Below, one piece after another: positions 27,001 to 36,000 of a stretch of 64,000 bases of DNA. The DNA comes from Alphaproteobacteria bacterium (GTDB lineage: Bacteria > Pseudomonadota > Alphaproteobacteria > G965222575). The position numbers were made by a program. The stretch lies in the NCBI GenBank assembly GCA_965222575.1, contig OZ244958.1, positions 843,194-907,193 on the forward strand, given 5' to 3'. Position 1 is the first letter of the stretch; the number at the start of each line of letters is the position of its first letter.

Positions 27001-30000
27001 TTTTGAGTAGCTAGTTGTGCGTGTGGGTTTTTATTTTTCCATGTGATTGTGTTAAGGTGAGAGGAGGTCCCGTAGCTCAGTTGGATAGAGCGTCGGATTC
27101 CTAATCTGAAGGTCACAGGTTCAAATCCTGTCGGGATCGCTTTCTTTTGTTTAGGAAAGGGGGGAGAGGAAAATCGGCACTCCAATGCTAAGTTCATAAG
27201 GGTTGTCAACAAGTTACTAGGGTATACTAGTATACCCCATGAATTATTGCGCCCCCTTACTTATAAGATACACTGTTACCTCAGAAAGGCGCTTCTTTTT
27301 GTCTTCGTCTGTTGTTTCTGTTAATGCCCACTCTGCCCAATGGAGCGGTGTCTTGCCGTCCTTGTCCTTTGCATTCACATCTGCCCCCTTCTCCACTAGG
27401 AACACCACTACCTCCTTGTGCCCCCCTAAGGCTGCAAAATGGAGCGGTGTCCCGCCGTACTTGTCCTTTGCATTCACATCAGCCCCCTTCTCCACTAGGA
27501 ACACCACTACCTCCTTGTGTCCCCATGAGGCTGCCCTATGGAGCGGTGTCCAGCCGTCCTTGTCCTTTGCATTCACATTTGCCCCTGCCTTCACAAGAAC
27601 TTCCACTGCCTCTTTGTGTCCATTTCCGGCTACCCAATAGAGCGGTGTCCCGCCGTACTTGTCGTCCTTTGCATTCACATCAGCCCCCTTCTCCACTAGG
27701 AACACCACTATCTCCTTGTGTCCCCATGAGGCTGCCCTATGGAGCGGTGTCCAGCCGTACTTGTCCTTTGCATTCACATTTGCCCCTGCCTTCACAAGAA
27801 CTTCCACTGCCTCTTTGTGTCCATTTCCGGCTACCCAATGGAGCGGTGTCCTGCCGTCCTTGTCCTGTGCATTCACATCTGCCCCCTTCTCCAAAAGAAC
27901 CTCCGCCACTGCCTTGTGCCCCTCTACGGCTGCCCATATGGAGCGGTGTGGAGTTGTCCTTGTCCTGTGCATTCACATCTGCCCCCTTCTCCAAAAGAAC
28001 CTCCGCCACTGCCTTGTGCCCCTCTACGGCTGCCATATGGAGCGGTGTGGAGTTGTCCTTGTTCTGTGCATTCACATATGCCCCCTTCGCTACAAAGAAC
28101 TCCACAACCTCCTTGTGTCCCTTATCGGCTACTATATGGAGCGGTGTCCAGCCGTCCTTGTTCTTTGCATTCACATCAGCCCCCTTCTCCACTAGGAACG
28201 CCACTTCCTCCTTGTGCCCCTTAGCGGCTGCCAGATGGAGTGGTGTCCAGCCGTTGTTGTCCTTTGCATTCACATCTGCCCCCTTCTCCACTAGGAACGC
28301 CACCACCTCTTTGTGTCCATTAAAGGCTATCCAATGGAGCGGTGTTGCACCGTCCTTGTCCTTTACCTTCACATTAGCCCCTGCCTTCACAAGAGCCTTC
28401 GCTACACACCCATACTGTGCATAAAAAAGTGGAGTACAACCTTTCTTGTTCTTTACGTCTACATTAGCAAGTGCCTTCCTTAGGCTCAGCAGAAAAAGGA
28501 GACCTAGTGTTATCAAAACGGACACTAGAACTCGGCACAAGACTTCTACTTTCAAAATATCCGACCGTGCAAAATGTTCTAGAGAGCTCACATACATACC
28601 TGACACAGCAATGGAAGCAATCACTAGTCCCCAAACAAGTAATGCCAGAAAATCAACAAGACATTTTATTATCTTGTGTTGCTCGTAGAGCTTTCCAAAG
28701 ACCTTCTTTATACTGCTCGTTATCCACAATGGAAGTGAAAAAAGAAAACTTAACAACCAGTTGTTTACTACCCAATGAAGGAGTGTATTGCCTTCCTTAT
28801 TATCTTTTATGATATTTTCTAGAGGGGTCTCCATTATCCCTATCTATTCCTCCTTATACTTTAGGAAGTGCATTGTCATACTGTTAGGGTATGATTCTCT
28901 CTGCTCTCCTGTCAAGTCAAGCCCCTAAGGCACAAAGGCTATTGCCCACCCTTGCTTTTCAGATACGCTATCACTTCAGAGAGGCGCTTCTTGTATTCTT
29001 CGTCTGTTGTTTCTTTTAATGCCTCCTTTGCCAAATGGAGCGGTGTCCTGCCGTTCTTGTCCTGTGCCTTCACAGAAGCCCCCTTCTCTACAAAGAACTC
29101 CACTATCTCCTTGTGTCCCTCATAGGCTGCTTCATGGAGCGGTGTTGCGCCGTGCTCGTCCTTTGCATTCACAGAAGCCCCCTTCTCTACAAAGAACTCC
29201 ACAACCTCCTTGTGCCCATAAAAGGCTGCTTCATGGAGCGGTGTTGCGCCGTGCTCGTCCTCCTGTGCCTCAATATCCGCCCCCTTCTCCACTAGGGATG
29301 CCACCCCTTGTGTCCCTTAACGGCTGCCACATGGAGCGCTGTCCAGCCGATATTGACCTTTTTATCTTTCGTGAAGAGAAAAAATGCCCCAATAAGCACG
29401 AGACCAATAAACGTCTCTATTGCCCCAATAAATACGAGAGCAATAAACGTCCCTATACAGACTGCTATAATAAAGCGCATTGTCATACTGTTAGGGTATG
29501 ATTCTCTCTGCTCTCCTGTCAAGTCAAGCCTTAAGACACAAAGGCTATTGCCCACCCTTGCTTTTCAGATACTCTATTACCTCAGAGAGGTGCTTCTTTT
29601 CTTCTTCATCCGTTGTTTCTTTTAATGCCTCCTCTGCCAAATGGAGCGGTGTCCCCCCGTCCTTGTCCTTTGCCTTCACATATGCTTCCACTAGGAACAC
29701 CACAATCTCCTTGTGTCCCTTAACGGCTGCCACATGGAGCGGTGTTGAACCGTTGTTGGCCTGTGCGTGGATATCTGCCCCCTTCTCTACAAAAAACTCC
29801 ACAACCTCCTTGTGTCCATGTCTAACTGCCTTATGGAGCGGTGTTGCACCGTTGTTGGCCTGTACGTGGAGTGAAGCCCCCTTCTCCAAAAGACCCTTCG
29901 CTACTGCCTTGTGTCCATGTTTAGCTGCACCATGGAGCGGTGTTGCGCCGTTGTTGGCCTGTGCGTGGATATCTGCCCCCTTCTCTACAAAGAACTCCAC

Positions 30001-33000: not shown

Positions 33001-36000
33001 ACATCTGCCCCTGCCTCCACAAGAACTTCCACTATCTCCTTGTGCCCCGCATAGGTACCCAAATGCAGCGGTGTATTGCCGCGCTCGTTCTTTGCATTCA
33101 CAGAAGCCCCCTTCTCTACAAGAACTTCCACTATCTCCTTGTGCCCCGCATAGGTACCCAAATGCAGCGGTGTATAGCCGTCCTTGCCCTTTGTATTCAA
33201 ATTCGCCCCCTTCTCTACAAAGAACACCACTTCCTCCTTGCGCCCTTCTAAGGCTGCCTCATGGAGCGGTGTATTGCCGTCCTTGTTTTTTGCATTTACA
33301 TCTGCCCCCTTCTTTACAAGAACTTCTACTATCTCCTTGTGCCTAAGGGTGGCTGCCCTATGGAGCGGTGTCACGCCCTCCTTGTCCTTTGCATTCATAT
33401 CCGCCCCCTGCTCTGCAAGAACTTCCACTATCTCCTTGTGCCTAAGGTAGGCTGCCCTATGGAGCGCTGTAGTGCCGTCCTTGTCCTTGATATTGATATC
33501 AGCCCCTGCCTTCACAAGAACTTTCACTACCTCCTTGTGCCTAAGGTAGGCTGCCACATGGAGCGGTGTCCTGCCCTGCTTGTTCTTTGCATTTACATCC
33601 GCCCCCTGCGCCACTAAGGATGCCACCACCTCCTTGTACCCACTAGAGGCTGCCCGATGGAGCGGTGTAGTGCCGTCCTCGTCCTCTGTATCCTGTGTAT
33701 CCTCTGTATCCATAGAAGCCCCATTCTCCTCTTCTTCAGTTGGGGCGCAAAAGCCTTCACTCATAGCAAACAAAAAGACAACACAAATAAGTAAACGGCT
33801 CATCCTCTCCTCGCAAAATTTCTATACATTAGTCTATCCTTGCTTTGTAGTGTTTGCAATTAAGATAATAACGCCTCTTTGTGCAACTTCACCGCAAGAG
33901 CCTTTATTAGAGACTTTTTTCACTTGAAAAAAGAAAATAAAAAAACGCTAGGCACTCTCAAAAGTATATGCTATCTTTTACTCCCTGTTGGTATTTTCTT
34001 CGGGATGTGATGAGAGTCCCTTACAAGCAAGTCACACAATGATTGCACACTAAACGATATGGCACGTTTATCTCCTGGTCTGTTCGTAAGGCAGGTAAGG
34101 CAAGAAGTTTCTAAAATTACCTGGCCGACTTTTCGTCAAACCTTACAGGGTCTTATGATGGTGTCTATCATTGTTTTTTTCGCCGCCTTGTTTTTTCTAC
34201 TCATGGATCAAATCTCTCAGATTATCGTGCGCTTTCTATTAGGCATATTATAAACGGAAGTAACAACTAGTTATGTCTTGGTATATTTTACATGTCAGAT
34301 CAGGATATGAGAAGCAAGTCTGTGAGACAATTCATAAACGCTTAGCCTCCGTTGGTATCAAGCAAAAAATTTCGGAGATTCTCATGCCCTCAGAAAAGGT
34401 AGTCTCTGTGAGACAAGGAAAAAAAGTGAATCGACAGAGGCAGTTTTTTCCCGGATATATGCTCCTTAAGATGGACATGACTGATGAGATGTATCAATTT
34501 GTCTCTAGGCTTCCTCATGTGTCCGGCTTTCTAGGAACAAAAGGGGTCCCTACAGCGATCACTGAGGAGGAAGTCGATGCTATTCGCACGAAAAATCAGG
34601 GAAATTTGAAAAAGACGGCGTCGGCTGTTCATTTTGATGTCGGCGAACAGATACGCATTTGTGATGGACCGTTTTTATTTTTTAATGGCTTTGTTGAAGA
34701 AGTCAATGAAGAACGGAATCGTCTGAAGGTATCGGTAAAAATTTTTGGTCGTCAAACGCCAGTGGAATTAACTTACGCGCAAGTAGAAAAGCTATAAAGA
34801 TTCGTGGCTAAAGAAATTCAAGGATATATAAAAGTTGTCATACCGGCAGGGAAGGCTACGCCTGCTCCTCCTCTTGGGCCAGCTCTAGGACAAAGGAAAA
34901 TCAACATTATGGAGTTCTGTAAAGCCTTTAATACCCTAACTGCAAAAGACCCCCCCGGACAGCCCTTACCCACAATCATTACAGTTTACTCAGATAATAG
35001 TTTTGCTATCAAAACAAAGGGGCCAACAACCTCTTACCTTATCAAACAGGCGCTTAAAATTGAAAAAGGCGGCGCTGAACCAGGACGAGTCATTGCAGGA
35101 AATCTCAAAGACACCCAGCTTACCTCCATTGCTAAAGACAAAATGAAAGACTTAAATACCTCTTCCCTTCCCGCCGCTAAGAAAATTGTAGCAGGGACAG
35201 CACGCTCCATGGGACTGGTGATAAAATAAGCAAGAACACAGACAACATGACACCAAACCCCAGTAAGCGCTTTCAGAACATGACCCTGCAATCGGACAAA
35301 GTCTATGAACTAGCGGAAGGGATAGAGGTGATGCAATCCTGTGCTACAGCAAAATTTGATGAAACTGTTGAGATAGCAGTGAATCTCGGGGTGGATTCCA
35401 AAAAATCCACGCAAATGGTACGGGGGTTGGTACACTTGCCTCATGGGCGGGGAAAAACCTTGAAAATTGCTGTCTTTGCACAAGGAGATTCTGCACAGGA
35501 GGCCAAAACAAGCAACGCAGACGCAGTGGGTGCTGAGGATTTGGTGAAAAAGATGGAAAAAGGGGATTGTGATTATGATGTGGTCATAGCAACCCCGGAT
35601 TGCATGAGCATTGTTGGAAAGCTTGGCAAGATTTTAGGCCCTAAAGGCTTGATGCCTAATCCTAAAGATGGAACTGTCACAACAAGTGTCAATGCTACCA
35701 TTGAAGCCTTGAAAAAGGGACAAGTCACCTTCAAAATGGACAAGGGCGGCGTGGTACATTGTCCCGTTGGAAAAGCAAGCTTTACAAAAGAACATCTAGT
35801 CAGTAACATAAGAGCCTTCTTATCAGCTGTCTTACAAGAAAAACCAAGTAGCGTCAAGAGACAATACATGAAGGATGTCATTTTATCTTCTACCATGGGG
35901 CCCGGCATTCGCCTAAAAGCCACTAACCTTGCTGTGCTTGCTCCATGAACAGAGAACAAAAACAGGAGTTTGTCAAGCACTTGAAAGAGAGATTCACCGC

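Follow-up and report, generated by a model that had tools for sequence, protein, structure and literature searches.

A five-gene ankyrin-repeat array

The minus strand of a 64,000-nucleotide stretch of contig OZ244958.1 (alphaproteobacterial assembly GCA_965222575.1; the whole stretch is hereafter called the window) carries, at 27244-33803, five head-to-tail gene units made of ankyrin (ANK) repeats, which are named g5 to g1 in the order of transcription (Table 1). As assembled, these five units comprise seven open reading frames (ORFs), g1 and g2 each being split by a frameshift, and all six of the ANK-bearing ORFs lie far above the Pfam cutoffs (Ank, Ank_2 and Ank_4, E = 1e-27 to 1e-150). The ORFs and Pfam matches bear out the location and content that an earlier, sequence-only reading had given for the array, namely five minus-strand ANK genes between rpoD/tRNA-Arg and secE-nusG. 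That reading also implied five intact genes, which is not borne out: two are frameshifted as assembled and a third lacks its N-terminus.

Anchored on the TPLH motif, the array holds 53 in-frame units, and g3 begins with a further, partial one, in agreement with the 'about 54' repeat cores reported previously, and no further ANK units were found in the rest of the window. The unit consensus is D-K-D-G-x-T-P-L-H-x-A-A-x-x-G-H-K-E-V-V-E-F-L-V-E-K-G-A-D-V-N-A-K. Neither the exact 99-nt periodicity nor the high nucleotide similarity first ascribed to these units held up on counting. Spacing is exactly 99 nt in 39 of the 48 within-gene intervals (90, 93, 98, 100 or 102 in the remainder), with Tandem Repeats Finder returning a period of 99 at 27333-28381, 29035-29261, 29634-32642 and 32930-33679 (72-89% matches), and unit-to-unit identity is moderate, with a mean of 73% (range 48-99%; 76% within genes, 73% between genes). 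Among proteins of solved structure, the best matches to the array are ankyrin-1/2 and designed ankyrin-repeat proteins (DARPins; PDB sequences, E = 1e-160 to 1e-45). An AlphaFold2 model of g5 is a helix-turn-helix solenoid of eight helix pairs, with a predicted local distance difference test score (pLDDT) of 96-98 at residues 41-300 and low confidence at residues 1-40.

Table 1. Features of the array, its flank and the type III secretion locus (window positions). ORF, open reading frame; uORF, upstream ORF; T3SS, type III secretion system.
Feature	Position	Strand	Remarks
g5	32901-33803	-	intact, 300 aa; 8 ANK units; Pfam Ank E = 1.4e-80; end AYLKSKGAQ
g4	31333-32754	-	intact, 473 aa; 13 ANK units; signal peptide same as g5
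g3	29545-31179	-	open, 544 aa; 16 ANK units and partial first unit
g2	28939-29486	-	hydrophobic N-terminus MTMRFIIAVCIG; 4 ANK units; two ORFs
g1	27244-28834	-	135-aa N-terminal membrane module; 12 ANK units; two ORFs
5' module of g5	33741-33895	-	promoter-like TTGCAA-N17-TAGACT, uORF, Shine-Dalgarno, signal-peptide codons
5' module of g4	32692-32846	-	copy of g5 5' module
Element GGCTTGACTTGACAGGAGAGCAGA after g5	32862-32885	-	exact copy
Element GGCTTGACTTGACAGGAGAGCAGA after g4	31285-31308	-	variant copy
Element GGCTTGACTTGACAGGAGAGCAGA after g3	29507-29530	-	exact copy; kept in L008 at 8340-8400
Element GGCTTGACTTGACAGGAGAGCAGA after g2	28900-28923	-	exact copy
tRNA-Arg(CCT)	27066-27140	+	flanks array
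T3SS translocon operon	5854-9475	+	17.8 kb upstream of array
LcrH/SycD-family chaperone	5854-6336	+	126 bits, NCBIfam cutoff 104.8
SseC-like translocator	6859-8055	+	
SctB	8111-9004	+	44 bits, cutoff 37
CesT-family chaperone	9014-9475	+	

The genes of the array are built from three modules. The first is a predicted N-terminal targeting module, for which g5 and g4 have a Sec-type signal peptide and g2 and g1 have hydrophobic membrane segments; g3 has lost it. The second consists of 4-16 near-consensus 33-aa ANK units whose variable residues lie on the canonical concave binding face, and the third is a family-specific C-terminal cap. All five genes end in YL(K/I)SKG, a capping repeat of the form PLHLAEEALKETTDEEEKKRLSEVIAYLKSKG is common to g1-g4, and the cap is marked by an ETTDEEEKK insertion and the end YLKSKG.

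At the gene level, g5 runs from its Sec-type signal peptide (33741-33803) through a 20-aa acidic linker to the ANK units; the linker contains a 9-nt tandem repeat (3.3 copies, 33682-33711, minus strand) that codes for TEDTQDTED. A hydrophobicity scan of g3 detected no signal peptide and no membrane segment. This gene opens inside a repeat, with a decayed, out-of-frame remnant of the N-terminal module upstream, and its start is likely the ATG at 31167, which has GGAGG in front. In g2, the N-terminal hydrophobic segment has been doubled by a 36-nt tandem duplication (2.0 copies, 29385-29456, minus strand), while in g1 two transmembrane segments occupy residues 59-77 and 98-116. Only g5, g4 and g3 are uninterrupted. 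The frame of g2 is broken by the loss of one nucleotide near 29295, which leaves a unit of 98 nt, and that of g1 by an extra G (GGG at 27933-27935) in a unit that otherwise repeats the 99-nt unit before it exactly. Both indels fall in short G runs and could be either real pseudogenizing mutations or consensus errors; in the latter case g1 would encode about 530 aa and g2 about 180 aa.

Sequences around the genes are shared as well. The 5' modules of g5 and g4 have in common a 102-nt exact repeat over the leader and signal-peptide codons, after which identity collapses. Each carries the same nine-codon uORF, MYRNFARRG* (33800-33829 and 32751-32780, minus strand), whose TGA stop shares bases with the ATG start codon of the gene that follows (ATGA), an arrangement that suggests possible translational coupling or leader control. 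Directly 3' of the g5, g4, g3 and g2 stops lies an intergenic element, GGCTTGACTTGACAGGAGAGCAGA, with a promoter-like TTGACA-N18-TACCCT; it is present in three exact copies and one variant (chance expectation 0) and nowhere else in the window.

Two kinds of prediction over the array were rejected. Long plus-strand ORFs (27312-28424, 30237-31169 and 31557-32717; 310-386 aa) are not considered genes, because the repeat unit has no stop codons in its antisense frames, and plus-strand 'terminator' calls fall on a string of codons, GCGGTG...CCGC, that recurs from one ANK unit to the next.

Turnover and variability of the repeat units

Identity across the array is distributed as a mosaic. Besides the 102-nt repeat described above, g1 contains exact repeats of 79-80 nt that stem from one-unit and two-unit duplications, the intergenic regions after g3 and g2 share a 54-nt exact repeat, and the 3' modules of these same two genes are 90% identical, a pattern that is explained only by recombination or recent duplication. 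Synonymous divergence at invariant codons is low (T6 0.04, V20 0.04, G27 0.085), which points to concerted evolution. As well, units 1-4 of g4 are collinear with units 5-8 of g5 (84% nucleotide identity over 374 nt, ending at TATCTGAAAAGCAAGG), and this collinearity reaches the YLKSKG codons, where g5 stops and g4 reads on. Since the C-terminus of g5 is thus internal to g4, we conclude that g4 arose by fusion, a g5-like gene having been joined to one downstream.

Related DNA also differs from the array in unit number and content. Sequence L008 matches the end of g3, g2 and g1 of the window at 79-94% nucleotide identity and ends within g1. Of g3 only a 122-aa remnant is left there, and the genes before it are non-ANK genes rather than g4, g5 and secE, while the g2 equivalent is intact, with seven units vs. 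four, a single 22-residue hydrophobic segment (the 36-nt stretch is present in single copy) and a g5-type cap. L008 could belong to the same genome, as a second array, or to a divergent strain that occurs alongside it; in both cases the family is not invariant. Two other genes of L008, both on its plus strand, encode predicted signal peptides: one (19-1005) combines the signal with a single ANK unit and a C-terminus like an outer-membrane protein (OMP) beta-barrel (OMP_b-brl, 25.6 bits, just below cutoff), and the other (4987-7944) specifies a 985-aa protein with a C-terminal F and no Pfam match. Coverage of L008, and of a second related sequence, L007, is low (7x and 2x, respectively, by their names), such that frameshifts in either are unreliable.

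Taken together, the array has grown in place by tandem duplication and continues to be reshuffled by unequal crossing-over, gene conversion, gain and loss of units and gene fusion. The frameshifted and truncated copies would be by-products of the same turnover. The sequence-only reading had proposed a rapidly recombining, diversifying effector family. Its recombination is well supported by the exact repeats, the fusion and the altered unit number in L008; its diversifying selection is not, given that the data fit relaxed constraint as well as positive selection, as follows.

The highest-entropy positions of the unit are 5, 14, 10, 13, 3 and 2, whereas T6 and L8 are invariant. Five of these six are target-binding positions randomized in DARPins, and in the g5 model the six map to the turn before helix 1 and to helix 1 itself, so that the variable residues do fall on the binding surface, as had been noted. 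Variability at binding-face positions is, however, generic to ankyrin repeats, as known from consensus design, and because of this the positional pattern alone is not evidence of diversifying selection. Between paralogous repeat units, the six DARPin positions have a ratio of nonsynonymous to synonymous differences (pN/pS) of about 1.2, compared with 0.6 for the framework positions that make up the rest of the unit. Seven disjoint, recently diverged unit pairs show 23 nonsynonymous and eight synonymous codon changes, and nine of the 23 nonsynonymous changes are at the six DARPin positions (P = 0.015). This enrichment of recent change at the binding face is suggestive, yet, coming from paralogous units, it is compatible with relaxed constraint; likewise, the pN/pS pattern indicates a constrained framework and fits relaxed constraint of the surface equally well as positive selection.

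Alternatively, the array might be mostly non-functional DNA left by a past expansion and now eroding in a shrinking genome. The genome is indeed reduced (1.2 Mb), pN/pS is near 1 in the recent unit pairs (23 nonsynonymous vs. eight synonymous changes), two genes bear single-base frameshifts and g3 is without its N-terminal module. But g5, g4 and g3 maintain open frames of 300-544 codons through repeats that are prone to gain stops, the framework is constrained (pN/pS 0.6, with T6 and L8 invariant), and conservation is perfect in the promoter-like element, the leader and the signal peptide. Moreover, the frameshifts, lying in short G runs, could be consensus errors, and the g2 equivalent is intact in L008. 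We regard wholesale decay as improbable on this balance.

Relatives, flanking genes and the tRNA

When 1.84 billion representative proteins were searched exhaustively with HMMER for the N-terminal module of g1, only three matches came back, two of them informative (P0241 and P0242). Both are on contigs (L007 and L008) from a single metagenome sample in ENA (ERZ25072854). The family is lineage-specific, as the sequence-only reading had proposed. The contig of P0241 is L007, whose peptide deformylase is identical at 212 of 213 residues to one on a 1,215,846-bp contig, a length equal to that of the contig with the window; L007 thus comes from the same species, with P0241 a paralogue of the array genes. 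The N-terminal module of P0241 is 50% identical to that of g1 and its C-terminal end reads ...LSETIDYLKSKGAK, and therefore both end modules are conserved.

The surroundings of P0241 (L007:10001-11516; flanks 5683-17695) are unlike those of the array. To one side are phrog_32711 helicase and methyltransferase genes, and to the other are phage tail genes encoding a tape measure protein (in three pieces), a minor tail protein and a ParB-methyltransferase. In this setting P0241 resembles an ANK gene carried as cargo by a prophage, which may be degraded. No phage structural genes were found beside the array in the window, and viral contigs (IMG/VR) scanned with g4 and with P0241 contained no relatives.

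Other searches yielded little that was specific. Full-length g4 retrieved, among the matches listed, generic ANK proteins of 30-46% identity from fungi, fish, Wolbachia, Endozoicomonas and Planctomycetota. This word-indexed protein search missed P0241 and the L008 proteins even though they are present in the collection, and its negatives for repeat proteins are accordingly weak. A degenerate DNA pattern for the C-terminal cap produced two chance matches in JGI metagenomes, both in non-ANK genes, and a NusG scan of reference genome contigs identified one unrelated locus (41% identity).

The array is flanked upstream by dnaG, rpoD and tRNA-Arg(CCT) and downstream by secE, nusG, rplKAJL, rpoBC, rpsG, fusA, tuf and the S10/spc/alpha operons. 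The genomes with the nearest RpoD (L004-L006) do not have secE after rpoD; the array therefore stands at the junction of two conserved blocks, and the adjacency of rpoD and secE here points to a rearranged gene order. A different picture, that of an accessory insertion at a tRNA within a conserved core, had been drawn by the sequence-only reading, and of this the flanking tRNA-Arg is borne out. An ORF and Pfam scan found no integrase at the array, and no second copy of the tRNA-Arg 3' end occurs in the 64 kb with up to three mismatches allowed, so that tRNA-Arg(CCT) is not demonstrably an integration site. It is the only tRNA gene in the window, with no tRNA-Trp before secE, and no other Rfam element was matched. 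Between it and the g1 stop lies a perfect 18-nt palindrome, GGGTATACTAGTATACCC, at 27220-27237 (a 9-bp hairpin without a U tract), in a spacer whose fold is unremarkable (z = -0.36).

Base composition sets the array apart, with GC of 0.49-0.57 vs. about 0.45 and GC at third codon positions (GC3) of 0.56 vs. 0.45. Every unit inherits the codons of one founder unit, however, and for this reason the raised GC and GC3, like codon usage, are weak evidence of foreign origin. As for the host itself, its contig of 1,215,846 bp indicates a reduced genome, the RpoD of the window reaches no more than 49% identity with any other, and an Alph_Pro_TM protein (Pfam) is present. It is a deeply branching, reduced and probably host-associated alphaproteobacterium.

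Export signals, type III secretion and known ankyrin families

The N-termini of g5 and g4 are identical (MSRLLICVVFLFAMSEGFCAP) and have the form of a cleavable Sec signal peptide, as predicted from positive charge at the start, a hydrophobic core of 11 residues (Kyte-Doolittle 3.28) and small residues (S/G) at -3/-1. They resemble the signal MLLRFLLLGGLVLPLSAFA of a periplasmic binding protein encoded at 49-1881 of the window. The latter is the first of two tandem SBP_bac_5 (peptide-binding protein) paralogues (49-3771, minus strand) and has a classic signal peptide, while the second has none at its called start, suggesting a miscalled start or a damaged N-terminus.

These signals bear directly on type III secretion. 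The window does contain a bona fide T3SS translocon operon, at the 18-kb distance from the array that had been reported (17.8 kb; Table 1), and non-flagellar systems of this type are uncommon in reduced alphaproteobacterial endosymbionts. The ANK proteins might be injected through it, and the hairpins of g1-type proteins might then insert in the host vacuole membrane in the manner of chlamydial Inc proteins. In keeping with this, g3 has no Sec signal, and g1 and P0241 share an N-terminal region of about 58 aa, two transmembrane segments 20 residues apart and an ANK domain, a topology that presumably recalls Inc proteins. T3SS substrates, however, normally lack Sec signal peptides, and the only intact full-length members of the array, g5 and g4, bear predicted signals of precisely this kind, their hydrophobic n-h-c N-termini being at odds with what is expected of T3SS effectors. 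The two members that might suit injection better are themselves compromised: g1 is frameshifted and has a highly conserved, ANK-like N-terminus (DNKEGNTLLHW) that differs from typical type III signals, and the N-terminus of g3 is a remnant (a truncated repeat). Nor is there a chaperone gene next to the array (none within 27140-34059), those for CesT and LcrH being beside the translocators instead. A proximity of 18 kb weighs little in a 1.2-Mb genome, and the effector link made by the sequence-only reading, which was one of proximity, is not supported by these comparisons. We consider injection rather unlikely, though conceivable for g1-type proteins.

Sec-exported proteins could, for their part, be periplasmic or envelope factors that bind the bacterium's own proteins and never reach a host, on the model of RARP-1 or of the Bdellovibrio ankyrin self-protection protein. 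Sec signal peptides with no visible outer-membrane secretion route would suit such a role, and RARP-1 of Rickettsia parkeri, which had for long been taken for a secreted protein, proved to be periplasmic (10.1101/2022.02.23.481736). The L008 neighbours described above (an OMP-like protein with a signal peptide and ANK unit, and a large signal-peptide protein ending in F) extend this envelope theme. On the other hand, five fast-changing paralogues with variable unit numbers, frameshifts and changes at the binding face are a poor fit to housekeeping, and one paralogue is prophage-linked. An envelope role is possible, although in our view doubtful.

We instead favour, with a probability of roughly 55%, the interpretation that this is a lineage-specific family of ANK-only proteins that grew by local expansion and continues to be reshuffled, and whose intact signal-peptide members are Sec-exported binders, with host proteins as their likeliest targets. 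We infer that the g5 and g4 proteins would cross the inner membrane by Sec rather than by the T3SS. As periplasmic, surface-bound or released molecules they might then bind proteins, those of the host being the most likely. A precedent exists in ANKp, a phage-encoded protein of sponge symbionts that has a signal peptide and ANK repeats, is secreted, reaches the host and lowers phagocytosis (10.1101/608950).

Several points weigh against this interpretation. The Sec assignment is drawn solely from sequence features, only three of the five genes are uninterrupted as assembled, and the surface pN/pS of about 1.2, obtained from paralogous units, is not a formal test. As well, the positive-inside rule places the ANK domains of g1, and possibly g2, in the bacterial cytoplasm, such that targeting may differ across the family. 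In its most elaborate form, such variation could amount to combinatorial targeting, in which a diversifying ANK scaffold is joined to interchangeable address modules (Sec for the periplasm or outside, an Inc-like hairpin via the T3SS for the host vacuole membrane) and the prophage-borne copy spreads modules. This scheme is speculative and has, we think, little chance of being right; if true, a single array would place related binders in several host-facing compartments.

Should the exported members indeed bind host proteins, as in the favoured interpretation, the array would be a compact natural case of a symbiont with a 1.2-Mb genome making new binding specificities, by means of unit duplication, gene fusion and the swapping of targeting modules. 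It also offers a caution for genome scans, in that ANK repeats near a T3SS are not the same as T3SS effectors: the N-terminal signals here point to Sec.

Among known systems, the architecture of g5 and g4 (a predicted signal peptide and an ANK domain with no transmembrane segment) would be that of ANKp and RARP-1. The likeness is one of architecture, with no sequence kinship seen beyond the ANK repeats, and the array differs from both, since ANKp is phage-encoded and single-copy (10.1101/608950), while RARP-1 is a conserved single gene whose product has a long disordered region and stays periplasmic (10.1101/2022.02.23.481736). Multi-copy ANK proteins of intracellular bacteria provide another parallel, as in the Dot/Icm effectors of Legionella and Coxiella and the Ank proteins of Orientia, which are type I secretion substrates (PMC4315096). 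In contrast to these, the array has N-terminal Sec or transmembrane modules instead of C-terminal type IV or type I secretion signals. All of the Legionella Ank-effector models (NCBIfam NF0430xx) score far below their cutoffs (AnkY is best, with 203-216 bits vs. 600), and no F-box, PRANC or other effector domain was found by Pfam in the array ORFs, which match the Ank clan only and whose C-terminus is a capping repeat. DARPins are close to the array in unit consensus and in variability at positions 2, 3, 5, 13 and 14, whereas the array, unlike DARPins or ankyrin-1/2, is a bacterial family of natural origin, whose C-terminal cap and targeting modules are its own.

Another close parallel is the ANK family of Wolbachia, which is, as the present bacterium probably is too, an alphaproteobacterial endosymbiont with a reduced genome, and which has many ANK-dominated genes, some with transmembrane segments and some prophage-linked, as is P0241 here. 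Wolbachia ANK genes undergo changes in repeat number, frameshifts and intragenic recombination (PMC3563639). The two families are not orthologous, however, the best Wolbachia matches being generic ANK proteins of 38-41% identity, and here five genes stand head to tail in a single array, have promoter, leader and cap modules in common and bear Sec signals. The family is thus new and lineage-specific, but it belongs to a known class of bacterial ANK families in which modular N-termini and gene fusion will not surprise a specialist, and the array, while opening no new question, adds one lineage to the intracellular bacteria with expanded ANK families.

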